63,565 nucleotides of DNA from Methanosarcinales archaeon (GTDB taxonomy: Archaea; Halobacteriota; Methanosarcinia; Methanosarcinales; Methanocomedenaceae): NCBI GenBank assembly GCA_021108405.1, contig JAIOQW010000228.1:1-63565 (forward strand). Reading direction: 5' to 3'. Position 1 is the stretch's first letter; every line of letters begins with the position of its first letter. The notes under the pieces were generated by a model, which was not told the DNA's origin, made no database searches, and was given only the letters and a program-made list of their open reading frames with translations. The position numbers and the translations under genes were made by a program. Below are positions 30,726 through 55,360 of this stretch, piece by piece.

Positions 30726-31688
30726 TGTGATGATCAGGATCACAGCAAGAGTTAAGACAATCCCAAACCCCGGGGTTTCTTCCTGTTGCGATGTCTTGTT
30801 CGAAGCAGTAGATTCGGGATAGTGTTTAACCACAAGTACTGACACAACCGGACACAGAATACTATCCATACCTCTATCGAATTCCAATATATTATCCTGG
30901 TCAAGGCTCTTGGTAACATTCCATTGTTTAAGATCAAAGCATCCCCCTCTCCATTTATTACCCACCTCATCAGTTCCGGCACCATCTGATGCATCTGTTG
31001 CGACCAGTTCCGAATTGAACCATAACGTATCATGGACTTCATCTTCACTCTCTTTGCTACCCCAAATATATACTGTAGTAAGCTCTGCATCTATTACTCC
31101 CATCAGATCAACAGAACCAAAGGAAGTGTTTGTAGTGTTATGATACGCAGTAAATGGCGAGTGGTTACCATGCAAAAGTGGATTTCCTTCATTGACCTGG
31201 TATTCTATTAATTCAGGAGAATCACCTCCTTCATATGCCACAAGAAGCAGGATTCCCCAGGACTTGGTATTAAAACCAACCCTGGTGCCAAGATCAGCTG
31301 TTGCAGTATTGGTCCCGTTTACTATCCACTGCGCCACATTGTCATAATATACCCAGTACATACCCTTCTCTTTCTGGTAGTTTGAATATACCCTGGTGTT
31401 GTTTATAAGATCCGTATAATTACCAGGATAATATCCGTTAAAAATCATATTGATAGAGGAAGTATCCTTGGCACTCACATACAGCCGTGCCCACTGCGGC
31501 GTCCCATCAGGTACAGTAAAGTCCTGGGTATAGGTAGTTGTATAGACCTTTCCGTGACCTCCACCTATATATAATCCGCCGTTTACTGTTCCCTGTTCAA
31601 TAGTGTGTAACGGCACACCATCCTGATCCCAATCTGCTGTTGCTATTGTGCCTGACATAAGGATAGTGAGGACGATCAAGAGATACAT
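30669..31688 (-). CDS. Secreted surface protein with one DUF3344-like module and a PGF-CTERM anchor signal
   Basis: Signal peptide from the internal Met (MYLLIVLTILMSGTIATA). The module carries TVNGGLYIGGG...WARLYVS...GILLLVAYEGGDSP. The C-terminal motif is ETPGFGIVLTLAVILIITLMI. The 3' end overlaps argB by 57 bp in convergent orientation. Confidence 0.65.
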   Translation of the reverse strand: MYLLIVLTILMSGTIATADWDQDGVPLHTIEQGTVNGGLYIGGGHGKVYTTTYTQDFTVPDGTPQWARLYVSAKDTSSINMIFNGYYPGNYTDLINNTRVYSNYQKEKGMYWVYYDNVAQWIVNGTNTATADLGTRVGFNTKSWGILLLVAYEGGDSPELIEYQVNEGNPLLHGNHSPFTAYHNTTNTSFGSVDLMGVIDAELTTVYIWGSKESEDEVHDTLWFNSELVATDASDGAGTDEVGNKWRGGCFDLKQWNVTKSLDQDNILEFDRGMDSILCPVVSVLVVKHYPESTASNKTSQQEETPGFGIVLTLAVILIITLMIVDHCSDSFVSKQFKQ

Positions 31689-31879
31689 TATGACTTTCTT
31701 AAGCTGATCAGTATATGGTACTCTATCAAAATCATAATCTTCCGATGCAGTATAAACAAAGGATGAGAACATTACTAACCGCAAAGCTATTATTCTATAT
31801 ATATGTGCTCTTTGGCTCTGTTATCTCTATCCCGCAACTTAAAGTATAACAGAATTTGAGTTGCGGGACTAAATGTTTA

Positions 31880-34717
31880 TCATATTTTCTGTCTGTGTAG
31901 TATGAGTATTGCAATCAACAGCATACATATGCCTGCAATCGAACCAAAACCAGGTGAGCCGGTATTCTCCCTGGATGATGTTTGTTCCGGAGCCTGTGTT
32001 GATATATCGTCTTTACTTTCAGTCGACTTAGCTTCTGTATCTTTTTCACCTGCTACACTTGTAGATGTCTTGCCAGTTATCGCAAACGGAGAGAAACCTG
32101 GTGTTTTAGCTTTAAAGCACAGGCAATTTTCATTCTTATCTATCTGTGTAGTTTCAAGCGGTTTCCATTCTTCATCACTAAACCTGTACAATTTAATAGT
32201 GGATTCAACGATATTGTTTTCTTTGATCCAGGACCTTTCTACTTCAAATTTAATCTCTGGATCGGAAATATGTTCCGAAGTTGCCCAACTGCTGCTCCCG
32301 GCCCAGATATTCAGGTTTATAAATACTTCATCCGGTGCCTCACTATCTGCCAACGATGATCTGGATTTCAGTATCTCGACCTTTACAGCAACTTTTCCTG
32401 AGTTTGAAAGAGGTGTGAAAGTAATAGAGTTTATAAAATTATCTTCCGAATCAAAATTATAGGTTACTCTTGAACCTTTACTCAAATATTCTCTTTCAGT
32501 CTCCGATGTCTCTATATTTGCATAATTTTCACCGGATGCACCACCGCGTGAGCTGCTTCCGCCTCCACCACCGCCGTTTCCGGGTGGGGTGGAGTCTGGT
32601 GCTCTGGTCTGCAGGCATGTGAAGACAGGGGCAAAACCGTTGCTGGTTCTTTCCTGGAATTTGACAACTTCATCAGTGCCAGATGCGGTTATGTCATTCT
32701 TGTCCACATCACTCCTGTTGATACCAAGTGGATATAAGTAATTACAAGAAGGTACTCCGGCAACGCATTGCCATGCACTTACTTCCCATGAGCGGTTGTT
32801 GAACTGCTGGGATTCGCTTCCAGGCGCTACGGCATCGACTGTAACAGTGAACAGATTCGCTTCTGCTATTGTAGTGGGATCCACATCTGTAAGTGTGGTG
32901 GTCGTTGTTGCATCCTCTGGTAACACCTTGTACTGTGTACTATAATATGTAGCAAGTCGATCGTATCCATGAGCTATCGCGTACGTGTTATCGCTGCCAT
33001 CATCGTAGATGATCATCAGAGCCATGCCGGATACATATCCCTTTCCTTTTAAGGTGGGATCTGTATTATTGCAATTTGACCGAACTGCCTGATAAGCACC
33101 ATTCCCGGCAACATTGTCTGTTACATCATACACCAGCGTTCCGTACTGATACTCAGATGTGGTAAATCCTTTGATGTCAGTATAGTACTCATCGGTTGTG
33201 AGTGTGCTGCCACCGTTGATGGACATCTCATAGTCCGGTCTTGGGTCGGCGCCAGGATTGGGACCAGTTGCCGATTTTCGGTAGGTGTAGTACACATACA
33301 GTGTTGCGTTCTTTATCGTTGCACCTGCGGGAACCTCTGCAGTCAATCCGTCTACCTGATTCTCATCTCCGGATGCCTCGATGCTGAAGTTCACTGTATT
33401 GTTCTTGTACTTGAAATCTCCAACCGAGTAGATCACACCGCCTATGCCCTCGTATGCAGTGGTCATCGAATTATCTCCACGATATCCATAGCATGTATCA
33501 GGCAGCATATCATCAACAGTGCAGTTTCCTGTGGTGTTTCTGGACACGATGAGATTGTTGTTGCCTTCTTTAGTACCTTCATCCACTACACCGCCGCTAT
33601 CAGCAAACGCTGTTATCGAGATGTTTTCAAGAACGGTTGGCTTCCAGTTACCAACTTCAACTACTGCACTCTCACTACCATTCAGTACAGGCACAGTTGC
33701 CGTTAATACGGTCGGGCCGCCTGTATGTGTGATGGTTAGATTTACATCGCAACTAGCAGTGGATGCAGTACCCTGATTCATCACATTTACAGATAACACA
33801 TTCGTAAGATTGGTGAATATATACTGCGGGTAAATGTTGCTTACGACAAGGTCTGGCCTATATTCCACTGTTAGAATTGCATTGCATATGTTGACACTTG
33901 GATCAGAGCCTTGACTGAACCATGCATCATTTCCTGATGTATTCATATAATTCGTTACGCTCCATGTATGCATATCGAAGAAATTAGTGTTTATGCAACT
34001 TGTATCCAGCTCATTACCATTGAACTTCATGCAGTTGCTACAGGATGGATCATACCCAGTAAGATGCACCAGAGTGAGATTTGCCATCGCAACATTATCA
34101 GTACTCACTGTGCCAACAAAATTTGTAGTTCCTGTGGGATTAGTGGAACTAAGGGGTTCACTTCCGTTATTGATCCAGTACTGAATCTGCTTCGGGTCAT
34201 CCCCACCCTCGTAGACCACAACCAACACAATGCCATAAACTCTGCCATCAATGCTATCACTATCATTGATCTTCGATGTAGTTGCAGTGTTTATCTGTCC
34301 TGTATTAACTAAGTCGGTTACATTATACCAAAACCAGTGCTTACCAAGACCTGTACACCAGACATTATTATTACTATCGCTTTCACCCTCTAAATGTATT
34401 GGACCGAGTTTGTTGCTGGTACTATCTCCATTGAATGTAACATTCACCCAACCGTCCTTGGATACACCATTACCCCAGACACCAGTGTACAGGTAAGCAT
34501 ACTTAACGGTTCCATTCGGTACATCAGTGTTTAGTGTGCGAGTTGTGCTATCGTCCCAACCAACGCTATCATAGAAAACACCGCCGTTGACGGTGCCGTT
34601 GATCATAGTATCTACAGTCCATCCATTAGAACTATAATCTGCTTTGGATGATACTGCCAGCAAGCATACAATTAAAATGCTAAATAAAATTATTGAATAT
34701 CTATTTCTACTAACCAT
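31880..34717 (-). CDS. Large cell-surface glycoprotein: two DUF3344-like modules, a CARDB-like domain, a Gly/Ser linker, a PGF-pre-PGF-like domain and PGF-CTERM
   Basis: Signal peptide MVSRNRYSIILFSILIVCLLAVSSKA. The module recurs (GIVLVVVYEGGDDP, GMALMIIYDDGSDN). PDLVVSNIYP...NVMNQGTASTASCDVNLTI is CARDB-like, followed by a GNGGGGGGSSSRGGASG linker. The C-terminal motif is GSPGFGSIAGICMLLIAILILHRQKI. There are many NxS/T sequons. Confidence 0.75.
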   Translation of the reverse strand: MVSRNRYSIILFSILIVCLLAVSSKADYSSNGWTVDTMINGTVNGGVFYDSVGWDDSTTRTLNTDVPNGTVKYAYLYTGVWGNGVSKDGWVNVTFNGDSTSNKLGPIHLEGESDSNNNVWCTGLGKHWFWYNVTDLVNTGQINTATTSKINDSDSIDGRVYGIVLVVVYEGGDDPKQIQYWINNGSEPLSSTNPTGTTNFVGTVSTDNVAMANLTLVHLTGYDPSCSNCMKFNGNELDTSCINTNFFDMHTWSVTNYMNTSGNDAWFSQGSDPSVNICNAILTVEYRPDLVVSNIYPQYIFTNLTNVLSVNVMNQGTASTASCDVNLTITHTGGPTVLTATVPVLNGSESAVVEVGNWKPTVLENISITAFADSGGVVDEGTKEGNNNLIVSRNTTGNCTVDDMLPDTCYGYRGDNSMTTAYEGIGGVIYSVGDFKYKNNTVNFSIEASGDENQVDGLTAEVPAGATIKNATLYVYYTYRKSATGPNPGADPRPDYEMSINGGSTLTTDEYYTDIKGFTTSEYQYGTLVYDVTDNVAGNGAYQAVRSNCNNTDPTLKGKGYVSGMALMIIYDDGSDNTYAIAHGYDRLATYYSTQYKVLPEDATTTTTLTDVDPTTIAEANLFTVTVDAVAPGSESQQFNNRSWEVSAWQCVAGVPSCNYLYPLGINRSDVDKNDITASGTDEVVKFQERTSNGFAPVFTCLQTRAPDSTPPGNGGGGGGSSSRGGASGENYANIETSETEREYLSKGSRVTYNFDSEDNFINSITFTPLSNSGKVAVKVEILKSRSSLADSEAPDEVFINLNIWAGSSSWATSEHISDPEIKFEVERSWIKENNIVESTIKLYRFSDEEWKPLETTQIDKNENCLCFKAKTPGFSPFAITGKTSTSVAGEKDTEAKSTESKDDISTQAPEQTSSRENTGSPGFGSIAGICMLLIAILILHRQKI

Positions 34718-39575: not shown

Positions 39576-40592
39576 TTATTTTCTTCTCATTACTATCAGG
39601 AGTGCAGCTATCAGGCCAAGTACGGAAAGGATCATTCCAAAACCTGGTGATGACTGTTTTGCTTCATCTGCAGACTTTTTTGCATCTTCTGCTGCCTGAT
39701 TGGCCTGCGCTACTGCCTGGTCAAGTTCTGCACTTGATGTAGTTGATGCAGTTGATGAGGATCCGTCAGGTGGGAATGATTCAATTATAGGTACAATGAA
39801 CACGCCTCTTATATTGCGGCCGGTTTCAGGTTCCATGGTAGCTCCGACAAACCATATTCCAGGTTCATCAAGTGAATAAACAAACTCTCCCTGACCATTG
39901 GACTTGGTAACTCTTGTGAATACCATCGGTGGGTCATATGAGTACATACTTTCTGCTTTTTCCACTATCTCCACTCCAAGTTCCTTTGTGTGATATATCT
40001 CAACCTCAACTGAAGCATCTGTTAGCGGCTCATCGTTATGCATTGCCTGTCCTGCAAACACAAAACCTTCTTCCATGCCGTAGGGGCGCATATAGGGCAT
40101 TATTTCAGTTTCCTGTCCGACCTCTGCATCCCAGCCTTCCCACATCTCTACACCACAATGGATAACAGCCTTAGTATAATCTATCAGGTTTTCACCTTCG
40201 TCCTCATATTTCACAAATATTACAGAATCCCCGTCCTGATCAACAGTGAATGAAGTCTTATATGCTACGAAAATTCCATCATTTCCGTCTTCATCCATTC
40301 CATCAACTTCTATCTCGCTGGTTTCGAGTTTCTCAACAGTGCCATCAGGCTTCATAACAGATACCTCGGGTACGGATGACATATTAAATAGTATATGTTC
40401 ATATGGGTGTCCCCACATCATATATATCGTCTTTGTCTCTCCAAGGTCTGCTATATAATCCTCAGGTGTCACATCCCATATGGTATTCTCACTATCACTT
40501 GGAAATACCATAGTGAAATGTGCACATGCTGTGCCGGAAGATGCTAATAAGAGCATCATTATAAGTGAAATTCTTATAAAAGTTGTATTCAT
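39576..40592 (-). CDS. DUF4198-like (NikK/CbiK-type) extracytoplasmic metal-binding protein with a PGF-CTERM anchor
   Basis: The signal peptide ends GTACA|HFTMVFP, followed by WGHPYEH. The C-terminus has an Ala/Gln/Glu-rich linker and then SSPGFGMILSVLGLIAALLIVMRRK. Confidence 0.6.
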   Translation of the reverse strand: MNTTFIRISLIMMLLLASSGTACAHFTMVFPSDSENTIWDVTPEDYIADLGETKTIYMMWGHPYEHILFNMSSVPEVSVMKPDGTVEKLETSEIEVDGMDEDGNDGIFVAYKTSFTVDQDGDSVIFVKYEDEGENLIDYTKAVIHCGVEMWEGWDAEVGQETEIMPYMRPYGMEEGFVFAGQAMHNDEPLTDASVEVEIYHTKELGVEIVEKAESMYSYDPPMVFTRVTKSNGQGEFVYSLDEPGIWFVGATMEPETGRNIRGVFIVPIIESFPPDGSSSTASTTSSAELDQAVAQANQAAEDAKKSADEAKQSSPGFGMILSVLGLIAALLIVMRRK

Positions 40593-42571: not shown

Positions 42572-43021
42572 TTGTCATTATTTGTTGATACAGGAATATT
42601 TTTTGCTGCATTTTCAAAAAATGACACTCATCATGTTGAAGCAGTAGGATTACTTGAATGTGCACTACTGGGAAAATGTGGAGCAATATACTCCTCTGAT
42701 TACATTTTTGACGAGACTGTGACACTTGCAAGGGTTCGGACACATAATTATGAAATAACTTCAAAGATTGGAGATATGATTAAAAACTCTTCAAGAATCA
42801 GACTATTAAGAGTGGATGAAGATATTTTTAATAAGGCGTGGGATATTTTTGGGAAATATCATAATAAAGAACTTAGTTTTACAGATTGTACATCGATAGC
42901 ATTAGTAAAAACACAAAAAATTGATATGATATTTAGTTTTGATCTTCATTTTGATGGAATACTTAATCGAATTAATTCGGTACATGATCTATCTACTGGA
43001 GTGCACCCCAAAAAAAGCTGA
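42572..43021 (+). CDS. vapC: PIN-domain ribonuclease toxin (VapC-like), TTG start
   Basis: LFVDTGIFFA (first Asp), SSDYIFDET and SFTDCTSIAL...FSFDLHF give the acidic quartet layout of PIN domains. Confidence 0.75.
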   Translation: MSLFVDTGIFFAAFSKNDTHHVEAVGLLECALLGKCGAIYSSDYIFDETVTLARVRTHNYEITSKIGDMIKNSSRIRLLRVDEDIFNKAWDIFGKYHNKELSFTDCTSIALVKTQKIDMIFSFDLHFDGILNRINSVHDLSTGVHPKKS

Positions 43022-43377
43022 CCCCTTCAAAACCAGGCTGCTGGTTCCTGATATAATCTACTGTAAACCTGATACTTCTGTGTTAAAAAATATTCACAGT
43101 TGATCAATATTACCACGACCAACAATCAACCAAAACCTACCATTACAACAGCCCAAATACCCACTTCACTCCCCCATCCCTTTACCATGCCTGCGGGCTG
43201 TATACACTCCGGATTCAAAGGTACAGTAACACAGGCCGGGGACTAAGAAATAGCATGAGCACAAAGAATATACTGATTCAAATAAGACCAACTCTAACAG
43301 ACCAAAGTATTTTTGATATACTTTTCACAGGTGTCCGCATGATTTTAAGCGAGAGTGCCTGAAGTATAAAGCTCAGA

Positions 43378-45264
43378 TTACCTCTTACTCACTAACTTTC
43401 GTCTCATAACAGCAGCAGCAATCGTAAACATCACACCCACAATAAGCAATATCCCCCCACCCCACAACAGACTTGCAAAAGGATATTTCTTTACAGAAAA
43501 CTCGATATTCTCAATCCGTATGCTGGGTGTACAACTGGATCCCTGGAAATCAAGCTGTATATCACCAAGCAGACCATGTCTCACTCCGGGCTTAGCAATA
43601 AACCCGTACTGAAGGCTCTTCCAGAAAAGACTCTTCATTTCGTATGTACCACTATCGACCACTTCAACATTCAGGGTCTGGACCCAGTCAGTATCAGTAT
43701 ACTCAACATCATAATCAATAAAGCGCACACCTAAACCATTATCTTCCTTATATACCCCTTTTTCATCAAGACTATAATGAAAAGTATGTACAGTTGCAAA
43801 AGAAGTGCTTAATAACGCACCCAGAATTAGAAAAATAAAACCCGCATGGATCAAATTAATACCTGTAAGGTGAATGGCTATCTTCTTGTTCTTTACTTTA
43901 AGATCATTTATCATTTTAAAAATAATACTGGCTATGACAAAGAAAAATGCACTCAAGTATAAGAGTACATTGACTCCGGAAGGTATGACAATAACAAGTA
44001 TAAGAGACACAGCGAAATAAAACATAACTACAATAGACAGAGTATTATCCTTTACCCTGCCATACAGCATACAGACACCGGTAAGATAGGTCAGGGCCAG
44101 GATCAAACAAAAGAAGAAAAAATTATAATATTCAGGTGGCAGAATAACAGCTTTTCCGGTATAATAGAGGATTATATACACAGTAGGTCCCCATAATGAA
44201 ATAAATATCATGATAAGTAAGATCACGATCGTAAAATAAAACGTATTCTGGGGCTCAAAAACTTCACGAAAACCGCCTGTTACCGTAGTGAGAGAGATAT
44301 CATGTTTCAGTGCATATATTACCGAATAAAAAACCACTATCACAATAAAAATTAAAAGCATCCACCATGTGGGTGTTCCCGGGAAACTGTGGATAGAGCC
44401 GAAGATGTCACTCCTTGCAACTAAAGTGGTATACAAACATGCAAGAAATGCACTGATACATAACAAAGGAAAAAGTCGTTTATATTCACCCCTGTTAAAA
44501 CGTACCACAGCATGCAGAGCAGTAGTTAATAGGAGCCATATAGCCATGGTACATGATTGCAAAGGGTCCCACTGCCAGAAACCGTTCCATCCAAGCAGAC
44601 GGTTAGCCCATAATCCCCCCGTAAGCATACAGATGCTTAACATTATCCATGAAATTCGCAGATAAATCCTGATACCGGTCATCCTCTTCTCATTTACAGT
44701 AAGATAAGCAAGCGATACGGCTGCAGGTATAATAACAAACGCATATGCAATAAGAGTGGTAAAAATATGTACAGGCATAAGGATATCTATAAGTGCGGGA
44801 CTGATACCGTTACCTGATAAAGGCAACGATGCACCGCTTACAATAAATATTGAATTAAAAGGCGTCATAACGATCGCCAGAACAAGCAAGAATGCACAGC
44901 CAATTAATGCATACATGATAGCGATCTGGTCAATATGCGAACATTTTTTATTCAGTTCGGTAAATATCAAAACAACCAATACCGAAAGCCACGCCCATAC
45001 CAGATATGTTCCTTCCTGGCCTGTCAGTATAGCAGCAAGCCTGTAAAAAAGGGATAGATCCCCGCTGTCATGCTGCCAGACATAGATCAAACTATAATCA
45101 AGGAATATAAATGCATATGCCAGTAACAGTACACAAAGAGTGGATAGAACCGCTGCAGTCCTGATCAACAGGATGGCCTGCTTATTTCTCCCTGTGTACA
45201 TAACAACACCAGCTAAACAAGTAGACAGAAAAGTCAAATATAATAGAATATTTCCTACAGTCAT
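43378..45264 (-). CDS. ccmF: CcmF-like cytochrome c heme lyase / assembly protein
   Basis: 628 aa, about 15 TM helices, Trp-rich WWD-type motif GWNGFWQWDPLQS. The start overlaps the stop of the 2153-aa cytochrome by 4 bp. Confidence 0.75.
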   Translation of the reverse strand: MTVGNILLYLTFLSTCLAGVVMYTGRNKQAILLIRTAAVLSTLCVLLLAYAFIFLDYSLIYVWQHDSGDLSLFYRLAAILTGQEGTYLVWAWLSVLVVLIFTELNKKCSHIDQIAIMYALIGCAFLLVLAIVMTPFNSIFIVSGASLPLSGNGISPALIDILMPVHIFTTLIAYAFVIIPAAVSLAYLTVNEKRMTGIRIYLRISWIMLSICMLTGGLWANRLLGWNGFWQWDPLQSCTMAIWLLLTTALHAVVRFNRGEYKRLFPLLCISAFLACLYTTLVARSDIFGSIHSFPGTPTWWMLLIFIVIVVFYSVIYALKHDISLTTVTGGFREVFEPQNTFYFTIVILLIMIFISLWGPTVYIILYYTGKAVILPPEYYNFFFFCLILALTYLTGVCMLYGRVKDNTLSIVVMFYFAVSLILVIVIPSGVNVLLYLSAFFFVIASIIFKMINDLKVKNKKIAIHLTGINLIHAGFIFLILGALLSTSFATVHTFHYSLDEKGVYKEDNGLGVRFIDYDVEYTDTDWVQTLNVEVVDSGTYEMKSLFWKSLQYGFIAKPGVRHGLLGDIQLDFQGSSCTPSIRIENIEFSVKKYPFASLLWGGGILLIVGVMFTIAAAVMRRKLVSKR

Positions 45265-48200
45265 TTAATCCGTCTCCATATTAAGATCAATGACCCTGTA
45301 ATAATGATCAAAGGTAAGATCCATTTCAATATTAACTCTATAAACGCCATTCCACCTGGCTTCTTCACAGTAAGCAGGTCAATAGCATCTCTACTCCACT
45401 TACCTGATGAGTCCTTTACATGTACTAAAAAAATATACTGGCCCGGAGGCATATCCGATGTGTCGATCACAGCACCGAGCAGTACAGATGAATCGTTTGA
45501 ACCGCCAACCACGAATTGCAGCGGTTTACCAGTACCATCCTTACCCATATCATTGATGAAATACTCACCCACTGTTACCTTAGTAAGAGGCGGAAGTACC
45601 ACAGTACATTCCAAAAGGCTTACTTCCCCGCTAATTACTCTATCAGGTTTAAGTGAGACCGCAATACGGGGAATAAATTCACTGGTTGCAAGAGTATGAA
45701 GGCTGACAGGGTCACCGCCGCCGTGACATAACGTACAGTTAGGTGCAAAACCGTGAGCTGTACCAGAAGGTGAAAGTCCTTCCGTACCCATGTTAGTGGC
45801 ATTGAATGGTGATGCTCCTCCATGATAGGTATGACAGTCCTTACACCCGGTAATATTCCCTGTATCCCAGTCCTGCCACCCGGTATCCTGTACAGTACCC
45901 AGTGGATACGAGTCAAAGTGGAACCTGCTCTCTCCTGTAGCATTATGGCAGGATGTACAGGTAATTATAGTCCGGTTGAACAGAGGGTGTGAAATACTTG
46001 CCCTCATCCCACCTTTCAATTGAACTGAGGAATTATATTCAACTTTAAGAGATTCAATATCTTTGTGGCATTCCCGGCACCCTTCAAATGTTTCATCAGT
46101 AAGATTGCCAACTATTCGTGTAAGTTCATGGTATTTGTCTGCCTCCTCATTATGACAGATTATGCATGTTGTGGTCTTGTTTGCTGTCTTTATCTCTGCT
46201 CCCGCATAATGCATGGAACCGTATTCAGTGTGGCAATCCGTACACAATATACCTTCATAAGGCTGGTATTTACGTTCTTCATGCGGAGGATGACACTCAG
46301 TACATTCGACATCGTGCTTGATCGCACCTGTGAAATACCCCTTATCCACTAAAAACGGAGAATGTGACCTGCTTACACTTTCAGGGTCATGGCATTCTTC
46401 ACATCCGGAAACTACTTTTACTCCTGACCCGTGACGCAGTACATCTATCTGTGATTGTGGTTTATGCGGGAACTGTCCCTCAACACTGTGACATGGGAAA
46501 CAGTAGCCAAATGTCTCATTGGCATATTCCCTGACAATAAGACCGGTATGTATCGATTTGTTAGTAGTATTATGACATACGGAACAGGTATATTCATAAT
46601 TTTTCAAAGTGTTTACCTTATCTTCAGGTGCACCCGGATAGTGCGTGATGAGCGGGCTTAAATTGAACTTTTCCGCACCCTCTTTATCCACATGACAGTC
46701 CTCACACTGCCTGGTTATGGTTATACCAGTATCATGGAACATGGCCACTCCTTCACCTGCATGACATAGGGTGCAGTCATTGTCTGCATTGTGTTTGGTG
46801 ATCTGCGGAGCATCTCCCCATAATAGGCCGTTGGTTTCATTGTTATGACACACAGCACAGTGTGAAGTATGTAATAGATCATCCCTTGTTGAATAATGTG
46901 AAGTTGCAGCTTTTGCATTTTTTAAAGTGTCGTTGGTAAAGGTCAGTGAATGGCAGTCCCAGCACCCGGCATCTGTTGATATCTCAGCACCTGAATAATG
47001 TGTATATATCTGTACAGCATCGAATTTTGAATATGCATGACAGCTTACACAGGAGGTGGCTGGGTCAGTGCCAAAATAGGCTGTCGGGTGTTCTACAGGT
47101 TCATCACTGCTACCATTACCGTGACACGCCCAACATGCCTTGTTAGCTTCATCGGTGATAAAACCCGAATAGGTGGCATTGGAATTAAGACCAACATGCA
47201 CACCATCTTTAAATTTATTAATATCGATCTTTATAGGTGCTACACCATCACCTGCATGGCAGCTTATACAATCCGCAGTGTATATACCAGGTGTAATAGT
47301 ACCTACATGGAACGTTCCTGGTTCGCCCCCCAGAGTGATAAGGCTATCAAGAGGCAGATATTTTGGTTGTATGTTTGTCTGGAGTATAGAAGTATTTTCA
47401 TCAATGATCTTATGCTCTTGTGCGATCAACAGCACATCGCTCAGGGTAACAGACAGAGTAGACATACCTGTAAAAACACAGTCCAGCTTTGCGTGGAATA
47501 TTTCAATATCCCTATCAAGCATTTCCTGCTCATGCGTGAAATAGCTCCCCTGGGTGATCACGCTATCTTCTATCAATGTCTTGTTCCTATAGAGTCTAAA
47601 GTGTGCATTGTTCTGCTTTACACTCACATCCACAACTTGCAGACTAAAGTGCTCTCCAAGATCCCATATTTCTCCTGATGTAAGCATTTTTTTATCATGC
47701 TGTGCAAAATTGACAGCTATCCTGCCAAGAGTAATATTCTCATCTTTTCTTTGTAGTACAACATAGTCCGTACCATCCGGTATATTGGTACGGTATTCAC
47801 GGTCATGACAGGCATAGCATTGTTTATTTTCTGTTTCTATATGAATGCGTGACGAAAGCACATTTCCGCAAACTTCTGCTACAAAACTACCTCTTGATGA
47901 GAATATTTTCGTTACTATGAGATCAATAAGAGTGGTATTATTATCCTCGATCCCACTGATCTCGTATGTAAGCCTGCCGCCTTTTGATATGTAATCACGC
48001 TTAAGCAGTACACCGTTTTGCTTAATGTCAAACACTGCATCATTGGGTGTGGTCTCTATTAATACCAGTGAATAATTATCTATCAGCCTGAACGATTCAC
48101 CTGCACTCAGAGTCTCATTGATAAGGGTATAATGCGTATGATTTCTTTGATCAGGTGGATCTCCCCATCCATCTGCAATACCTGTATGACATTTGATACA

Positions 48201-51200
48201 ATCACTTGTATTCAACGCTTTTATCGGAGCATAATGAGCCGATGATATGGCAGCAGTCCTTGCAGTATATGCACCGTTCGAATGACATAGTTTGCAAGTG
48301 GCTGTGGTCGGTACAGTACTCATATCAGTAATGTGTTTATACACCAGCGGAGCATGTCCGAACTCATTAATATGACATTCATCACAGTCCTTCGGAGTGC
48401 TGCCGGGATGTCCCATGGTCACATTGATCATAAGAGTGAATTGTGCATCTCCATTTACATCCTGCACGAGTGCACTCCAGTTGCCTGGTCGGGGTAAGCT
48501 GATGTTTATACTGGTTCCAGTGTATGTGGTACCAGGTGCATACAGGACCAGGTTAAGTGTGCTGTCTCCTTCCCAATTGAGTGTAGTATTCAGGCTTGTG
48601 ATATTAGCAGGTAAGGTAAAGTTATATATTCGTGACTCTCTATCAACGACCATACTATTGATCTGCTGTCTGGGTGTGTGACAGTCGATGCAGTAGATAG
48701 TTTTATGTGCGGAATTCTTAAATTCGGCAATTGATATATGTTTATTACTCAATCTGTCATGGCATCCAAGGCAGGCATCATTTTCATCACTCATAGTAGG
48801 AAGTGTCAGGTTCTTATCATGTATCCTGGCTGAGCCATGACAGCCTGTACAGTCAATACCGTGTGTAACATTAGCAGTATATAACGGATCTGTGAATACA
48901 TCATTGAATTCCCTGCCTCCGTCAAGATGGCAGTACGAACAGTTGGTTACATTCCTACCATTCTCATTTTTCCACATATCGGTTCTCTGTCTGCCGTAGT
49001 GGGATACATAGTTTTTGGCTTCCCTGTATTTCACATCGTCTACGGGGGGTGTAGTTGTCAGTGATTTATTATGACATATCGTACAGTTAGCAATACTTGA
49101 ATTTGTGTGTATGTCCTCTCCGAGAGGCTGGTGTTCTCTTACCTGCAATGGTTTGCGGATAAGGTATTCGCTGTTAAGTGGAGTAGCAGTATCATGACAG
49201 TCCTCACACTGCGGCAGCTCTGATGCACGTCTTGTATGGAACGGGTCAATGAGTTGCTGTGAATAGTTATTATGGCATCCCCAGCAGACCTGGCTTATGC
49301 TGGTATAGTTGGATAAGTCGAAATCTCCTGTAATATTATAATGGATACTCTTGAAAAACCCGGTACTATTAATTATTGGCAAACCAGGGTTTGCATTCGA
49401 ACCTCCTTCCAAATGACATTCCGTACAGTCTCCTCCGGCAGCTTCTTCAGGCTCAAAATGAGGGTCACTGTGGCAAGAGAGGCAGTCAGTATAAGACATA
49501 TCATAATATCCGGCCATGCTATGTCCGCCTGGCCGCTGTATATGACAGGTAATACAGTCAGCAATAGTGATATCATGGAATGCATTATGGCATAACCTGC
49601 ACCCAATATCATCTTTTCCATCGTTATTAAGGTCGGTATGAGTGTATGAAAAACCATTACTATCCCATGCAGGCATGGGTTTTGATGTCCTGGCTCCTGC
49701 TAAAGTTCCATTAGCACCGGGGTTATGACATTCATTGCAATTGTAAGGTAAATGGATCACAGGTTTGTTCTTTATCGGATGACTTGAAGTGATGGTATAA
49801 TTGATGGTACCACCTGAGCGTGAAAAGACCCTGGCTATCCATATACCCTCACCAGGAACGGATTCAAAAATAACACCATGGAGATCTTCACCGGACGGAT
49901 AATATATTTTTGATCCGCTAGCAAATACAGCAGTACCATCGACATCCGGCACGCAGTAGGTACCGTCCCATCGATCATTAGTGTTCAGGTCCGCAAGACC
50001 ATTAGTATCATTGATAGGTCCGACAAGTGAGAGATATATTCTATCATTGTTATCTTCACAGTTCACTGTTATATTAATAGACCCGGAATCATCCATATTA
50101 ATGATATATGTCCTTACCTGTGCTTCATAAGACATGAACTCAGGAGAATAGTATCCTATGGTATCGGTTATCTGTGTGTCAGACCCAAAAGGCGGGTATT
50201 CCAGACCTTTACCCTGTGTTTTATGGTATATTCCATGACATGCTTCACAGATGACATTCTTATGCACTCCGGAAGGGTTCACATAAGCTGTTCCTGTTAA
50301 CGATGACGGGAATGCGATATTATAGGTAGTACTTTCGCTCTGGTCATGAATGAAACCTGTATGGCAATCAGTGCAATTGGCATCTGTTACATGAGAGGTT
50401 TCATTGAAGTTGGTCTGTGAGAGCCCACGGCCTACGGATGTATCGGAATAGATCTGTATAGTGGTATTTGATTGATCAAATATAGTGGTCCAGTTACTTT
50501 CTCCTTTAATAAACCCACCTTTATGACCATATATGAGGTCATGGAGATGGACTGGTGTTGCAGGTAAGAACTGTGATGCAAATGTACTATGGCACATTGA
50601 CATGCAATTGCCTCCCAGACCTGATGTGATGTTGTCAGGATGTATCATTACAGTTGGGTTTCTTGTCGAAGGGTCACCCTGCGGACTCCATGAATCATGA
50701 CAACCTCTTGCCTGGCAGCCCCATAGAGTAGTATTGAAACTGGTGGATACTGATAGGTCTTCTGACTGTATTGTTGTATTGAACTCAATATGATACTGGC
50801 CTGCATAGGCATCAACAGGGAAATCATATATTCCATAATAGAACAGGTGGACATAATCCTGTGCAAGATCGATAGAGGTTGTATTATTAGTAAAAATGTT
50901 GCTGACATGGTCATAATGAGGATATGTGAAATTTACTTTCAATACAGGGGGCTGGTTTTCCGCATCATCACTGAATATCACAGTCCCGCCTTTTTGCACT
51001 GTAATATCGTCAATCCACCACCCTGCATTGGCATTTCCATTTGAGACACAGTGGAATGCGACCATCATTTTTTCTCCTTCATATTTTGTCAGGTTGATCT
51101 CTTCCGTCACCCATCCACCACTATCTCCTGAGTACTGTTTGAGTATATCCCAGGTTGCTCCTCTATCTGTAGAGACCTTCACAAACCCGAAAACACCCGT

Positions 51201-51722
51201 TATATTATATGTTGTTTGGAATGTCAGGTTGGTTGTAGGGGGATCAGCCATTGGTTGTGCTCCGGTGAGCACACTATTGAGCCAATTATATAATGTTATA
51301 AAAATTCCTTTTTTTTCTGTGGAATGAGACATGTACATCAAATCAATATCATCGAATGGGTCTTGCGATGAAGAATAATTATCAAGATAATGCCAGGAAT
51401 GTATTCCATACCCTGCCTTCCAGCTATAGCTACCTCCATGTGAGATTGAACTGTCCCATGTCCATGCCGGAGGTGAAAGGCCGCTGATCGGTGTGGTATT
51501 TTCCATAATACTTACTGATATTATGTTCTTTTGCTGCATACCACTTCCCAGGTCCCACCAGCTCCATCCTGTTGTATTCCCACTACTCAGGTATCCAAGC
51601 TGGTATGGTGTCTGACCGTAGTTGATCCTTATAGAATAATCCTGTGCTTGAACAACATCTAACCATACACTGCAGGATAGTAGTATTAGTAATAATATCC
51701 CAACAGTGCATATGTACTTCAT
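45261..51722 (-). CDS. Giant multiheme c-type cytochrome (2153 aa) with non-heme insert domains and a C-terminal TM anchor
   Basis: Signal peptide MKYICTVGILLLILLSCSVWLDVVQA. By manual count there are 36 CxxCH motifs plus one CQARGCH (Cx4CH). There is a non-heme N-terminal beta-sandwich-like region (STDRGATWDIL...GWWIDDITV), two PPC-like inserts and two S-layer-type domains. The C-terminus is KKPGGMAFIELILKWILPLIIITGSLILIWRRIK. Confidence 0.9.
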   Translation of the reverse strand: MKYICTVGILLLILLSCSVWLDVVQAQDYSIRINYGQTPYQLGYLSSGNTTGWSWWDLGSGMQQKNIISVSIMENTTPISGLSPPAWTWDSSISHGGSYSWKAGYGIHSWHYLDNYSSSQDPFDDIDLMYMSHSTEKKGIFITLYNWLNSVLTGAQPMADPPTTNLTFQTTYNITGVFGFVKVSTDRGATWDILKQYSGDSGGWVTEEINLTKYEGEKMMVAFHCVSNGNANAGWWIDDITVQKGGTVIFSDDAENQPPVLKVNFTYPHYDHVSNIFTNNTTSIDLAQDYVHLFYYGIYDFPVDAYAGQYHIEFNTTIQSEDLSVSTSFNTTLWGCQARGCHDSWSPQGDPSTRNPTVMIHPDNITSGLGGNCMSMCHSTFASQFLPATPVHLHDLIYGHKGGFIKGESNWTTIFDQSNTTIQIYSDTSVGRGLSQTNFNETSHVTDANCTDCHTGFIHDQSESTTYNIAFPSSLTGTAYVNPSGVHKNVICEACHGIYHKTQGKGLEYPPFGSDTQITDTIGYYSPEFMSYEAQVRTYIINMDDSGSINITVNCEDNNDRIYLSLVGPINDTNGLADLNTNDRWDGTYCVPDVDGTAVFASGSKIYYPSGEDLHGVIFESVPGEGIWIARVFSRSGGTINYTITSSHPIKNKPVIHLPYNCNECHNPGANGTLAGARTSKPMPAWDSNGFSYTHTDLNNDGKDDIGCRLCHNAFHDITIADCITCHIQRPGGHSMAGYYDMSYTDCLSCHSDPHFEPEEAAGGDCTECHLEGGSNANPGLPIINSTGFFKSIHYNITGDFDLSNYTSISQVCWGCHNNYSQQLIDPFHTRRASELPQCEDCHDTATPLNSEYLIRKPLQVREHQPLGEDIHTNSSIANCTICHNKSLTTTPPVDDVKYREAKNYVSHYGRQRTDMWKNENGRNVTNCSYCHLDGGREFNDVFTDPLYTANVTHGIDCTGCHGSARIHDKNLTLPTMSDENDACLGCHDRLSNKHISIAEFKNSAHKTIYCIDCHTPRQQINSMVVDRESRIYNFTLPANITSLNTTLNWEGDSTLNLVLYAPGTTYTGTSINISLPRPGNWSALVQDVNGDAQFTLMINVTMGHPGSTPKDCDECHINEFGHAPLVYKHITDMSTVPTTATCKLCHSNGAYTARTAAISSAHYAPIKALNTSDCIKCHTGIADGWGDPPDQRNHTHYTLINETLSAGESFRLIDNYSLVLIETTPNDAVFDIKQNGVLLKRDYISKGGRLTYEISGIEDNNTTLIDLIVTKIFSSRGSFVAEVCGNVLSSRIHIETENKQCYACHDREYRTNIPDGTDYVVLQRKDENITLGRIAVNFAQHDKKMLTSGEIWDLGEHFSLQVVDVSVKQNNAHFRLYRNKTLIEDSVITQGSYFTHEQEMLDRDIEIFHAKLDCVFTGMSTLSVTLSDVLLIAQEHKIIDENTSILQTNIQPKYLPLDSLITLGGEPGTFHVGTITPGIYTADCISCHAGDGVAPIKIDINKFKDGVHVGLNSNATYSGFITDEANKACWACHGNGSSDEPVEHPTAYFGTDPATSCVSCHAYSKFDAVQIYTHYSGAEISTDAGCWDCHSLTFTNDTLKNAKAATSHYSTRDDLLHTSHCAVCHNNETNGLLWGDAPQITKHNADNDCTLCHAGEGVAMFHDTGITITRQCEDCHVDKEGAEKFNLSPLITHYPGAPEDKVNTLKNYEYTCSVCHNTTNKSIHTGLIVREYANETFGYCFPCHSVEGQFPHKPQSQIDVLRHGSGVKVVSGCEECHDPESVSRSHSPFLVDKGYFTGAIKHDVECTECHPPHEERKYQPYEGILCTDCHTEYGSMHYAGAEIKTANKTTTCIICHNEEADKYHELTRIVGNLTDETFEGCRECHKDIESLKVEYNSSVQLKGGMRASISHPLFNRTIITCTSCHNATGESRFHFDSYPLGTVQDTGWQDWDTGNITGCKDCHTYHGGASPFNATNMGTEGLSPSGTAHGFAPNCTLCHGGGDPVSLHTLATSEFIPRIAVSLKPDRVISGEVSLLECTVVLPPLTKVTVGEYFINDMGKDGTGKPLQFVVGGSNDSSVLLGAVIDTSDMPPGQYIFLVHVKDSSGKWSRDAIDLLTVKKPGGMAFIELILKWILPLIIITGSLILIWRRIK

Positions 51723-52729
51723 ATGGTTTCAGCTCTCTTTTCTTTTTTCTTATGCCTTAACTTGATACTTAATATAAAGAAAAAAATAGACAATATGCAC
51801 ATGAGAACTAATTGGTCAAGTGAAAATTCTGGTAGCCATGCCAGGTTATATACATTCACACTGATGATCTGCAACACCAATACCAATATGAAAATAACCG
51901 GAAATGCCATCAGGACCTTACCGGCAGTATGACGGAGTTGTGATGTGTTTATATTATTATCCAGATCAAAAAGCAGGACACCTTCAATGGTATATTTACA
52001 CCATGTATAATAAGCACTTACATATATCACCAGTCCGATACCCATACAACCGATCACTATATTATTTCCATAGAAAATGTCACCCATGATCGTGGTAAAA
52101 GGAATAACAAGAATAGGGATAAATAACCATGCCCATATTGAAGAACGCTGTAATAAATGAAAATCATAAGTAATTTCCAGCCACCAGACTGAATATAACC
52201 CGATAAATGCCAGTATAGCGTAACTGCCCCAAACATTCAACAGAAATATTAATAAAATTAGTGAAAAATTGATTAAGATGACCAATCGGAGAAATCGTGA
52301 TATCTGTTGGGAAATATCTATCCCGAATGCCGGATCTGAACCTGGTATCTTTAGTTCGACCGAACGTTTGCCAAGTCTTTCAATATTAAGATTCATGGTG
52401 TTTAGCCGTTCTTCTATGGAATTGATCACTACCTGGGTCCCGGCAATTTCTTCAAGGACCGGCTCTAACCTGGTATAAATTTCTTTTTCAAAACCAGTAT
52501 CGATCAGTTGTTCTCTTACAATGGTTCTTCTGGTAAGGTTTATTCCTCCCCACAGGGCACACAATCCGATCAATAACAATGTGAAATTAATGATAAAATT
52601 ATCGGGTTCACCTGATTTGCCTGATAGTATGTCTATCACATTCGCAAATGATAAATAGATCAGGTATAATGCTGTGCATAACAGGCAAACAATGCTAAAT
52701 TTTTCAATCAATGATATTCCCGGTCTCAA
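51719..52729 (-). CDS. Unknown polytopic membrane protein (about 8 TM helices with a ~70-aa coiled-coil loop)
   Basis: 336 aa with no motif recognised. It has 4-bp overlaps with both the signal peptidase (upstream) and the giant cytochrome (downstream). Confidence 0.6.
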   Translation of the reverse strand: MRPGISLIEKFSIVCLLCTALYLIYLSFANVIDILSGKSGEPDNFIINFTLLLIGLCALWGGINLTRRTIVREQLIDTGFEKEIYTRLEPVLEEIAGTQVVINSIEERLNTMNLNIERLGKRSVELKIPGSDPAFGIDISQQISRFLRLVILINFSLILLIFLLNVWGSYAILAFIGLYSVWWLEITYDFHLLQRSSIWAWLFIPILVIPFTTIMGDIFYGNNIVIGCMGIGLVIYVSAYYTWCKYTIEGVLLFDLDNNINTSQLRHTAGKVLMAFPVIFILVLVLQIISVNVYNLAWLPEFSLDQLVLMCILSIFFFILSIKLRHKKKEKRAETI

Positions 52730-53502
52730 TGTCTACTTCCCCCTGGTGTGAAAGTTATAAAAATATATAGTAATATACAGAGAATGAATATCACCAGTCC
52801 GAGGTTTTTAATACCCTTGATGACCTGGCTTATCCTGTACATCTGCGAACCATACTCTGTGATCTCAATATTACTGTCATCAAATAGTAGATATTCACCA
52901 ATGTTCTTCACTACTATCGGTCTACCATTGATAAGTACTGCTTCTCCCTGTATCAGGTCTTTATCCAATACCCAGTTATCTACTAATTCACACGCATCAC
53001 CCCTTGTTCGTATCTCGCTGTTTGAGCATGAATATACCCTGTGAATAACAGGCATCTTTACGTCTTCTATATCGAACATGATGATGTCTCCCTGCTGTGG
53101 GTCTACCTTCAGGTTTTGAATTAATACGAGGTCCTTTATTTCAAGGGTCGGAGACATGCTGCCTGAGGTTATAATTGCAAAAAAGACAAACGAGTTAAGG
53201 ATAACATATGCAATTGATCCGGTTATCAACAGGGGAAACAATACTGACAGAAGTTTGGGTCTTTTTGATATTTCATCATACCGTTTCATCTGTTGGTATA
53301 TAGGATATGTCTTATGGGATGTTCTTATTTTTTGTCGGTTAAGTGTGGAAGGGGTATTGTTTGGTTTATTGATACAGACCCTGTACAGGATAAATAATGA
53401 AAAAAGCCATAATAAATAAATTATAACAATAGATGGGTGATCATAACATAAGTATAATACACCATAGATTATTCCTCCGATCATCTGTTCAATAAATGAC
53501 AT
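52726..53502 (-). CDS. Signal peptidase I, archaeal/ER (Ser-His) type, with an extended N-terminal membrane region
   Basis: Box motifs SGSMSPTL, GDIIMF, IHRV and TRGDACELVDNW, plus a C-terminal TM helix. Confidence 0.75.
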   Translation of the reverse strand: MSFIEQMIGGIIYGVLYLCYDHPSIVIIYLLWLFSLFILYRVCINKPNNTPSTLNRQKIRTSHKTYPIYQQMKRYDEISKRPKLLSVLFPLLITGSIAYVILNSFVFFAIITSGSMSPTLEIKDLVLIQNLKVDPQQGDIIMFDIEDVKMPVIHRVYSCSNSEIRTRGDACELVDNWVLDKDLIQGEAVLINGRPIVVKNIGEYLLFDDSNIEITEYGSQMYRISQVIKGIKNLGLVIFILCILLYIFITFTPGGSRH

Positions 53503-53540
53503 TTTTATAAAAAAAATTAGGTTGACTTGATGTCAACCTA

Positions 53541-54257
53541 TCAACCTGTCGTCTGGTTTGGTGCCCAGTATGTACTATCACTTGTTCTTTCGCTGCTGTT
53601 CATGGAAATATCTAATTCCCAGCCGTTAGATGTGTAATTGGTGTGGTTTGCTGCTATAATTATCCCACCCTCATTACGTTCCATGGTAATATTGAGTCCT
53701 ATCATTGTGTGACATGCCAGACAGGCAGTATTTTCAGATACGTCATCTCCACTTAAGGTTTTTGTGGCATTATAGAAGTCGCCATGTGCCTCTTTTGGAT
53801 TAAGTAGTTGTGAACTGGCATTCAGGTGGCAGTCAACACATGCTATCGTCAGTGCAGCATGGGGTGTATCCTGTGTTCGCCATGATGAATTCCAGTCACC
53901 GATTTCTGTTAGACTTCCGCTTTCATTGAATATCTCAAAACCATAACCACTAATGTTGGTTGTATTGATCCCGTACATTGACAACCGAGTTTCATTAACC
54001 TGATGGCAGAAACATCCGGCTTCTTGGGAATTTCCTTCATTTTCATATGACGAGTGCGCTCCACCTCTGGCTATGTTGGCTTTCCATTCACCAACCTCGG
54101 CTGCATGACATCTCTCACACATATCATATTGGCTCTCTGCAGTTCTTACACTAAACCACTGGTGCTGGCCTACGAACATTGATAATGTACCTGGTATAAT
54201 GAATAGGCCGATAGCGATAACTGCAATACCTAATACTATTATTGCTCGTTTGTCCAT
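53541..54257 (-). CDS. Membrane-anchored tetraheme c-type cytochrome
   Basis: N-terminal TM helix (IIVLGIAVIAIGLFIIPG) and four CxxCH motifs (CERCH, CFCH, CVDCH, CLACH). It is the first gene of the operon. Confidence 0.85.
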   Translation of the reverse strand: MDKRAIIVLGIAVIAIGLFIIPGTLSMFVGQHQWFSVRTAESQYDMCERCHAAEVGEWKANIARGGAHSSYENEGNSQEAGCFCHQVNETRLSMYGINTTNISGYGFEIFNESGSLTEIGDWNSSWRTQDTPHAALTIACVDCHLNASSQLLNPKEAHGDFYNATKTLSGDDVSENTACLACHTMIGLNITMERNEGGIIIAANHTNYTSNGWELDISMNSSERTSDSTYWAPNQTTG

Positions 54258-54586
54258 CTACTAACCCCCGATTAATTATTGGATTCTCTTTCTTGTTGAT
54301 ATAAGGTATATTTTTTTATAAAATTTTTATGTAATAGTTACAGGAAAAACTGTTTTACTTTATTAATTGTTCTTCCCCCCGAGTGCTTTATATTAAGGCA
54401 ATCGTGATTATAGTATGATAATATAATAATATAATAATAACCCACTACACTGATTATATTTATAAGTTTGATACTATATATATTTATTGAAGAACTTTAA
54501 ATCTGCCATACTACTATGATTTCTTTAAGTTCAGCAGTGAACATTATATATCTTCTTACTGTCAAATCATTTAACTTGGAATAGGT

Positions 54587-55360
54587 ATGAATAAGACTAA
54601 AAAAGAGGTGGTACACATGATGAAAAAAAACATTGCTCATCTTAAATATACTCCCGGCCAGATTAAGAAAAAAACGAGAAAAATCTATCGTAAGATACTT
54701 TCAGAGTCAAAAAACCTTGATAGTGGAAATTATAATGGTATTGCAACAAGTGACGTTTATCGTCTATTTGAACTGTATGATCTGTATTTTTTTGATAGGT
54801 TTTTCCAAAATAATTATCAGGATAAGATCTTTTTTCGTTTGTCAAAAAGAATGACCCGTGCGGCAGGAAGAATCGCATATACAAAACCGGCAGAGACATA
54901 TACTATCTCTTTATCGACTACATTGATCTTCCAGACTTTTCATGATGTAACACGAGAGGTGTCAGCAAACGGAATTGTTTGTCATGATAGATTAGAAGCA
55001 ACAATGCATGTACTGGAACATGAGATCATCCATCTTCTGGAATGGGTACTATTTAATTCAACGAGCTGTTCCAAACCTCGTTTTCAACATTTGAGCTATA
55101 ACATTTTCGGACATACGCAGGTTACTCATCAATTGATAACCCAAACAGAGCGTGCCAGGAAAAAATTCAATCTTAAAGTAGGGGATAATGTGTCATTTGA
55201 ACATGATGGGGAAACCCACTATGGTTTCATCTCCCGTATAACCAAACGTGCTACGGTTATGGCTAATGACCCGAAAGGAGACTATAAAGACCCTCAGGGA
55301 AACCGGTATAGCAAATATTATATTCCATTGCCATTACTTGAAGTGGTCAAATCTTTATAG
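54587..55360 (+). CDS. SprT-like zinc metalloprotease domain protein
   Basis: FFRLSKRMTRAAGRI followed by the HEIIHLLEW (HExxH) motif. The exact start is uncertain, as there are several Met codons in the first 12 residues. Confidence 0.55.
   Translation: MNKTKKEVVHMMKKNIAHLKYTPGQIKKKTRKIYRKILSESKNLDSGNYNGIATSDVYRLFELYDLYFFDRFFQNNYQDKIFFRLSKRMTRAAGRIAYTKPAETYTISLSTTLIFQTFHDVTREVSANGIVCHDRLEATMHVLEHEIIHLLEWVLFNSTSCSKPRFQHLSYNIFGHTQVTHQLITQTERARKKFNLKVGDNVSFEHDGETHYGFISRITKRATVMANDPKGDYKDPQGNRYSKYYIPLPLLEVVKSL

Follow-up and report, generated by a model that had tools for sequence, protein, structure and literature searches.

We analyzed a 63,565-nucleotide contig of a Methanosarcinales archaeon (JAIOQW010000228.1, assembly GCA_021108405.1, positions 1 to 63,565; hereafter the window), in which two adjacent genes precede that of a giant multihaem cytochrome (MHC): S26c, which encodes a predicted specialized signal peptidase, and TM8, which encodes a 336-amino-acid polytopic membrane protein. 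We propose, with moderate confidence, that S26c and TM8 constitute a dedicated signal-processing and assembly module for small cytochromes of the AvECN family, named after the extracellular cytochrome nanowire (ECN) of Archaeoglobus veneficus, and that this module was co-opted into the giant-cytochrome operon of ANME-2 anaerobic methanotrophic archaea. The module is assigned to nanowire cytochromes because the pair tracks the ECN family across archaea and not the giant cytochrome. The gene pair itself was published in 2022. Chadwick et al. (PMC9012536; Fig 12B, S11 Fig) described the cluster as ANME MHC-B with the haem lyase paralogue CcmF2, with the same genes, the same order and the same restricted distribution as here, and noted that in ANME-2a/2b/3 it is preceded by 'a signal peptidase' and by an unannotated integral membrane protein, '8x TMH', which they found in all ANME groups and in Syntrophoarchaeum, Argoarchaeum, Geoglobus and Ferroglobus. 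These authors argued against an earlier membrane-anchor proposal for ANME-1 and suspected a maturation role instead; they drew no link from the pair to the small-cytochrome family that is now the AvECN nanowire family. Since the pair was already described, the novelty of what follows lies in its reinterpretation and not in its discovery.

Co-distribution of S26c, TM8 and small nanowire-family cytochromes

Across 401 genomes spread evenly over the phylum, which served as a single set for all four queries, we found the TM8 family in 63 genomes, the ECN family in 64, full-length S26c in 59 and CcmF in 167. TM8 is accompanied by ECN in 61 genomes (61/63 of those with TM8) and by S26c in 58, and 57 genomes have the full set of three, with Fisher p values for co-occurrence of approximately 1e-58 to 1e-66; the exceptions are mostly fragmented assemblies. 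Every S26c-positive genome holds exactly one copy scoring at least 235 bits, the other matches listed scoring 98 bits or less. Within one genus, a genome with TM8, S26c and ECN (G002) stands next to another, 97% complete, that has none of them (G005). As 167 of the genomes have CcmF and 63 have TM8, TM8 must be missing from no fewer than 104 genomes that are CcmF-positive, among them every member of the sister family (complete genomes; probably Methanosarcinaceae), which argues against a place for the TM8/S26c module in general cytochrome c maturation.

For a comparison of gene order we used 44 loci with TM8, drawn from many families. In 37 of these, S26c is no more than 5 kb away from TM8, and in 29 no more than 1 kb, bearing out the expectation that the peptidase and the 336-amino-acid protein form a conserved pair. 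An ECN-family gene is found within 5 kb of TM8 in 29/44 loci, and a cytochrome with at least 15 haems in only 19/44, the majority being loci of the ANME-2/GoM-Arc1 type that have MHC-B. What stays constant, therefore, is S26c plus TM8 (plus ECN-type cytochromes), and not S26c and TM8 plus the giant cytochrome. An original prediction, made by a model from the letters of the window, had held the pair to be specific to the giant cytochrome and had itself named missing synteny with large cytochromes in other genomes as evidence to the contrary; such synteny is absent in most lineages outside ANME-2/GoM-Arc1, and the claim does not stand. A narrow-pattern scan of the genome contigs yielded 17 loci only. 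At one locus (L072, G194:C4), a homologous cluster resides in an unrelated genome and differs in sequence from the window; that its contig is also given as 63565 bases long is probably a coincidence.

The gene upstream of S26c encodes a 238-amino-acid cytochrome that we identify, by sequence comparison, as a full-length homologue of the AvECN subunit. A single-sequence search against chain A of the AvECN structure (PDB 8E5G) returned E 6.6e-12, mostly over residues 7-71, and a profile of 18 members of the small-cytochrome family aligned positions 1-226 of 229 with residues 1-245 of 262 at E 2.9e-42. Like AvECN, the window protein and its paralogues share four haem sites and an N-terminal LP.T.S(L/M)F.GQH.W; compared with AvECN, the window copy is low in identity and has three CXXCH motifs plus one CXCH, at the second haem site. 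The deviating motif reads C-F-C-H at residues 82-85 and does so in the close relatives at L021, L022 and L023; in more distant ECN-family members the corresponding position is CXXCH. CFCH would be a rare haem motif with a one-residue spacer, provided that it does bind haem. Elsewhere in the genome, a second ECN-family paralogue of 257 amino acids with the same N-terminal motif follows a 147-amino-acid dihaem protein, and a dihaem-ECN pair also adjoins a second large cytochrome in two relatives (L023, L025). In electrode-grown Methanoperedens, an ECN homologue is abundantly secreted (PMC13748539).

The unusually conserved N-terminus of the ECN family has a hydrophobic helix whose Ala15 and Gly17 do not vary, followed by P22-x-T24-x-[S/A] and [L/M]-F28-x-G30-Q-H32, in which P22, T24, F28, G30 and H32 are invariant. 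With a helix-breaking proline, small residues at positions -3 and -1 and then an invariant histidine, this site reads as a signal peptidase I cut that would expose a His-bearing N-terminus, and in the window ECN the cut is predicted after Ser26 (IIPGTLS↓MFVGQHQW, the arrow marking the cut). The resulting signal, P-x-T-x-[SA]↓[LM]F-x-GQH, is private to the family: a strict form of the motif (P.[TSAVI].[SA][LMKAVY]F.G.H, within the first 90 amino acids) is present in 54 of 69 ECN-family open reading frames (ORFs), and none of the 715 other ORFs at the same loci has it. MHC-B (VQA↓QD) and the co-encoded 5-haem cytochromes carry ordinary signal peptides.

Architecture of S26c and TM8

S26c matches the Pfam family Peptidase_S26 (PF10502) at 31.5 bits, above the cut-off of 22.9, and is borderline for TIGR02228, archaeal signal peptidase I (50.5 bits by hmmscan and 52.2 in a six-frame search; cut-off 51.85). 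Ser115 (SGSM), His154 (IHRV), Asp169 (RGD) and Asp175 do not vary among 20 relatives of the S26c subtype, and S115, H154 and D169 are also common to the two housekeeping paralogues in this genome. With an S-x-S-M-x-P box serine, a histidine and not a lysine as base, and a G-D aspartate, the protein fits the archaeal/endoplasmic reticulum (ER) type (MEROPS S26B), and we predict it to be an active Ser/His/Asp signal peptidase I. It has three hydrophobic segments (21-45, 83-116 and 224-256) and therefore one extra N-terminal and one C-terminal transmembrane segment (TM) relative to the housekeeping enzymes; the full order is extra N-terminal TM, basic cytoplasmic linker, TM, catalytic domain, beta-rich extension and C-terminal TM. 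Across the phylum the extra TM is conserved, as are the cytoplasmic 'Y.E.S.RP' linker and the TM at the C-terminus. The original prediction of a Ser-His type signal peptidase I with additional membrane segments is thus upheld by the profile matches, by the invariant residues and by one extra N-terminal TM.

In all, the genome has three S26 genes, namely S26c and two tandem housekeeping genes of the Sec11 type. Neither housekeeping paralogue has the extra N-terminal TM, the basic linker or the C-terminal extension with its TM, and 'private' is thus a fair label for S26c. An insertion of 20 residues that follows the His box is common to both of them and absent from S26c. The earlier suggestion that the peptidase is a dedicated one, extra and specialized, agrees with its standing as a third S26 gene of a subtype that occurs once per genome and only where a TM8 gene occurs. 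The analogy drawn then to SipW is apt as well: in the SipW-TasA/TapA system of Bacillus subtilis, as here, an additional peptidase of the ER/archaeal type is encoded beside an extracellular filament subunit, and the clients bear a distinctive signal. S26c is not an orthologue of SipW (21.9 bits against NF046067, cut-off 190), from which it differs in its additional N-terminal TM, in an obligatory polytopic partner and in clients that would be haem proteins. The closest solved structures to its catalytic domain are SEC11A/C (PDB 7P2P, 7P2Q; E 5e-7), which belong to the eukaryotic signal peptidase complex and, together with SPCS1-3, offer a precedent for a Ser-His-Asp peptidase with non-catalytic membrane subunits. 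TM8 has no detectable similarity to the SPCS subunits, and the Sec11-type enzymes of archaea are believed to work without partners.

TM8 is a single-copy gene in this genome, and its product has about eight predicted helices, with a long helix at residues 42-122, and no match in Pfam or NCBIfam even at E 0.1, in keeping with its original description as a polytopic protein that combines a large loop with no known motif. The core of the family comprises six TMs and a 76-amino-acid cytoplasmic helical loop (residues 66-141), and two additional C-terminal TMs (residues 262-336) are confined to the ANME-2/GoM-Arc1/Methanoperedens subfamily and missing in most of the family. An exhaustive hidden Markov model search of 1.84 billion representative proteins recovered only 83 TM8 clusters, with a shared core at profile positions ~5-260; a second, word-index homologue search brought few further distant members among the at most 8000 candidates considered, and the family profile found nothing among PDB sequences. 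Invariant residues are G55, F80, P90, W182, W183, I186, P205, L207, P210, L233, Y236, Y240 and Y246. Neither an alignment of 36 members nor one of 24 that includes distant paralogues contains an invariant or near-invariant Cys or His, which rules out a Cys/Arg/His centre as in sortases, the Ser/His dyad of rhomboids and haem ligated by His alike.

The 6-TM core also occurs in natural fusions (P0075, P0078, P0080 and P0101). Three of these carry an N-terminal cytoplasmic TPR region, one of them together with a zinc ribbon, and the fourth, of 1483 amino acids, combines an extracellular beta-propeller/Ig region with a long repetitive cytoplasmic tail. The TPR fusions have no signal peptide and no TM between TPR and core; taken with the Lys/Arg bias of TM8, this puts the N-terminus, the 66-141 loop and the greater part of the conserved residues in the cytoplasm. 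By the same indicators, D77, F80, P90, the Trp pair and the stretch Y236-P253 would face the cytoplasm, with W182-W183 mapping near the cytoplasmic end of TM4.

This topology bears on the proposal of Chadwick et al. (PMC9012536), which would have the peptidase trim many ANME MHCs, MHC-B included, and 8x TMH handle haem and assist CcmF2. They suggested haem handling on the basis of conserved Trp in a loop placed in the periplasm; in our analysis the loop and the conserved residues are predicted to be cytoplasmic, and features of haem-handling proteins are missing. Both here and in relatives of the ANME-2/GoM-Arc1 type, translational coupling does join the pair to MHC-B and CcmF2, yet at most TM8 loci neither a large cytochrome nor CcmF is close by, and the distribution, although confined to cytochrome-rich archaea, leaves out the CcmF-positive genomes counted above. 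Haem-handling WWD domains act outside the membrane, whereas the WW motif of TM8, invariant in the family as it is, and its large loop are predicted to be cytoplasmic, no invariant His is available to ligate haem, and a profile alignment (hhalign) to CcmF2 reaches a probability of only 0.4%. The TPR of some fusions resembles the TPR domain of CcmH/CycH weakly, below threshold. We therefore regard a role in general MHC maturation as unlikely, and the published haem-handling suggestion for 8x TMH would need correction. On similar grounds TM8 was rejected as a WWD haem handler of the CcmC/CcmF/CcsA kind (WW is present, but there is no conserved His, the position is cytoplasmic and there is no profile similarity to CcmF2), as an NrfD-like quinol-interacting subunit (no Pfam match, low similarity), as a cytochrome b (no conserved His), as a CcmI-like protein (different domain order, cytoplasmic TPR domains in the fusions) and as a rhomboid protease (no conserved His, no Pfam match).

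Operon context, the giant cytochrome and neighbouring genes

The gene order on the minus strand is small cytochrome, S26c, TM8, MHC-B and CcmF2 (Table 1). Four-nucleotide start/stop overlaps (TTGA, ATGA and ATGA) join the last four genes in that order; S26c, TM8, MHC-B and CcmF2 are translationally coupled. The coupling of the peptidase and TM8 genes upstream of the giant cytochrome had been noted originally and is read directly in the sequence, and both ORFs lie exactly where they had been placed. The hairpin between the ECN-like gene and S26c has a 9-bp stem followed by T8 and heads a list of 12 terminator-like sites in 43000-55000; it is likely an attenuator through which the ECN-like subunit would be expressed above the downstream genes, setting the ratio of subunit to machinery. 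The nearest named relatives are 'ANME-2 cluster archaeon HR1' and 'Candidatus Methanomarinus' at 88-89% identity, and we therefore take the source to be an ANME-2b-type methanotroph.

Table 1. Features discussed in the text; positions refer to the window unless a contig is named.
Feature	Position	Strand	Details
Small AvECN-family cytochrome	53541-54257	-	238 aa
Second haem site (CFCH) of small cytochrome	54003-54014	-	residues 82-85
Terminator-like hairpin + T8	53518-53540	-	between ECN-like and peptidase genes
S26c, specialized signal peptidase I (predicted)	52726-53502	-	258 aa
TM8 ('8x TMH') polytopic protein	51719-52729	-	336 aa, TTG start
ANME MHC-B giant cytochrome	45261-51722	-	2153 aa, 35 CXXCH
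MHC-B C-terminal KKPGG, hydrophobic helix, RRIK	45264-45368	-	
CcmF2-type haem lyase paralogue	43378-45264	-	628 aa
PGF-type C-terminus	39576-40592		
PGF-type C-terminus	31880-34717		
PGF-type C-terminus, weaker	30669-31784		
Two tandem housekeeping Sec11-type signal peptidase paralogues	contig C145:48-1296	-	184 and 209 aa
Dihaem protein and second ECN-family paralogue	contig C118:2277-3510	+	147 and 257 aa

Chadwick et al. (PMC9012536) define ANME MHC-B by an N-terminal M6-like domain, an S-layer domain with a linker haem, a C-terminal TM and an adjacent CcmF2, and the window protein fits this definition, with an InhA/M6-like MAM domain (PF20773), an S-layer domain (PF07752), a C-terminal hydrophobic segment at 2122-2150 and an overlap-coupled CcmF downstream. 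Its C-terminus, ...VKKPGG-MAFIELILKWILPLIIITGSLILIW-RRIK, is tripartite as originally read, and the pattern is kept in orthologues as V.KP.G..E..LK...P.......IWRRFR; within this genome MHC-B is the only carrier of such a tail. The original prediction built on this tail and on the overlap-coupled genes a model in which the pair recognizes, cleaves and attaches the giant cytochrome in the manner of a sortase or exosortase. A sortase-type centre has no place in a TM8 that is without invariant Cys or His and has its conserved face in the cytoplasm, and a profile comparison of the kind that had been suggested gives an hhalign probability of 0.1% against the archaeosortase A of this genome. That archaeosortase is genuine (contig C2; TIGR04125, 240.7 bits) and serves PGF-CTERM proteins; four such proteins had been claimed for the window, where PGF-type C-termini do exist, in three proteins and not four. 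S26 peptidases, moreover, cut N-terminal signals, and most lineages have the pair and no MHC-B. The sortase-like model is largely refuted and in our estimation highly improbable, and KKPGG-helix-RRIK is most simply a membrane anchor.

A weaker form of the same idea does without cleavage or covalent attachment. Here TM8 would dock a cell-surface cytochrome assembly, in line with the earlier ANME-1 proposal, with the extra helices of ANME-2 TM8 binding the C-terminal helix of MHC-B and the peptidase merely trimming. The TM8 forms with extra helices (336-376 amino acids), a feature that most of the family is missing, do adjoin MHC-B in ANME-2/GoM-Arc1 loci, and the MHC-B helix is conserved beyond plain hydrophobicity (E..LK...P...IWRRFR). 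MHC-B also occupies the slot beside TM8 that is held elsewhere by another C-terminally anchored protein, a CARDB-domain protein that has a signal peptide as well as a TM anchor at its C-terminus and is encoded next to TM8 or S26c in 21/44 loci; we detected no homology between this protein and the C-terminal part of MHC-B, however, and docking leaves unexplained the cytoplasmic conserved face, the TPR fusions and the tight one-to-one link to a special peptidase. We consider docking improbable.

Outside ANME-2, further neighbours of the module recur: 5-haem cytochromes (14/44 loci), a lipoprotein-like protein of ~140 amino acids (15/44; present once in this genome, on contig C2), a MinD/ParA-type ATPase (9/44) and winged helix-turn-helix regulators (5/44). 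With the CARDB protein, this wider neighbourhood looks like a larger system. The MinD/ParA-type P-loop ATPase adjoins TM8 or the CARDB neighbour in Methanoperedens-like and Archaeoglobi-like genomes (L037, L038, L040, L061, L066, L068, L069, L074 and L080), and an AAA ATPase stands between S26c and TM8 at L034-L036. One could read these arrangements as a surface-organization system in which TM8, acting with the MinD/ParA-type ATPase and the CARDB protein, puts a surface structure in place or exports it and the link to peptidase and ECN reflects a shared regulon and not a mechanism. The nine loci with a MinD-type ATPase, the three with an AAA ATPase and the conserved cytoplasmic face of TM8 speak for it, while S26c and ECN are far more constant partners of TM8, the CARDB and ATPase genes are missing from the ANME-2 operon, and the genome has no CARDB orthologue. 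This explanation strikes us as quite improbable.

A proposed module for nanowire cytochromes

In the reading that we favor, S26c and TM8 would process and help assemble nanowire subunits. Pre-ECN would be exported by Sec and tethered by its highly conserved N-terminal helix while haems are attached by the Ccm system. S26c would then cut at the private signal and release an ECN subunit with the invariant His on its new N-terminus, which may polymerize or dock outside the cell. TM8 would be a non-catalytic membrane partner that holds or presents the ECN signal-anchor helix. Its conserved face in the cytoplasm and its coiled-coil loop would connect the process with cytoplasmic factors; the TM8 of other lineages is TPR-fused or encoded beside the MinD/ParA-type ATPase and the CARDB-domain surface protein. 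In ANME-2 and GoM-Arc1, translational coupling of the module to MHC-B and CcmF2 would mean that the S-layer conduit and the nanowire-subunit machinery are made together. What the comparisons above show is homology, catalytic residues, indicators of topology, synteny and co-occurrence; from these we infer the substrate specificity of S26c, the cleavage position, the contact between S26c and TM8 and any formation of filaments in this organism.

Several observations weigh against this proposal. No S26c is found within 5 kb of TM8 in 7/44 loci and no ECN gene in 15/44, and five Archaeoglobi-type loci (~19 kb) have the module with no ECN or other cytochrome nearby, the ECN genes of these genomes lying elsewhere. 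All ECN-positive genomes are also MHC-rich, so that co-occurrence alone cannot separate an ECN-specific from an MHC-rich-specific role. The conserved residues of TM8 are predicted to be cytoplasmic, away from the S26c active site, so a direct role in presenting the substrate is not obvious. Structure prediction lends no help: the AlphaFold2 model of TM8 from 36 sequences is poor (predicted local distance difference test score, pLDDT, 64; predicted template modelling score, pTM, 0.29), and Foldseek found no match to this low-confidence model in the PDB below E 2.6; the model of the small cytochrome from 19 sequences is too poor for comparison (pLDDT 46), and the Foldseek search with it, which found nothing, is uninformative.

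Among known systems, OzpA-OmcZ of Geobacter and Methanoperedens also places a protease beside a nanowire cytochrome, and the protease is needed to release the polymerizing form. OzpA is of the subtilisin type and cuts a C-terminal part, whereas S26c is an S26 signal peptidase with a predicted N-terminal cut. The S26c/TM8 module belongs to none of the SipW-TasA, SEC11 complex and OzpA-OmcZ families, and its resemblance to them would lie in the mode of working.

As a more tentative extension, which we hold to be possible and rather doubtful, S26c and TM8 may be the core of an unrecognized archaeal nanowire-biogenesis system that elsewhere includes the CARDB surface protein, the MinD/ParA ATPase and TPR modules. 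In the literature searched, no assembly factor is assigned to ECN-type nanowires, and no paper in the open literature, with Baquero et al. 2023 outside the search, ties ECN filaments to a signal peptidase or to TM8. If the proposal is true, haem-loaded subunits would come free at a moment set by a dedicated peptidase, with a polytopic platform linking their release to factors in the cytoplasm. The system would then be the first machinery known to assemble any ECN-type filament and would provide a route by which the ANME-2 S-layer conduit MHC-B is wired outward. The three-gene signature of an ECN with private signal, S26c and TM8 could serve as a genomic marker for the trait and as a small, testable set of genes to reconstitute in a foreign host such as Methanosarcina, in which Ccm is present and all three genes are absent. 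More broadly, the module would bear on how archaea build extracellular cytochrome filaments and on how ANME pass electrons to their partner bacteria.

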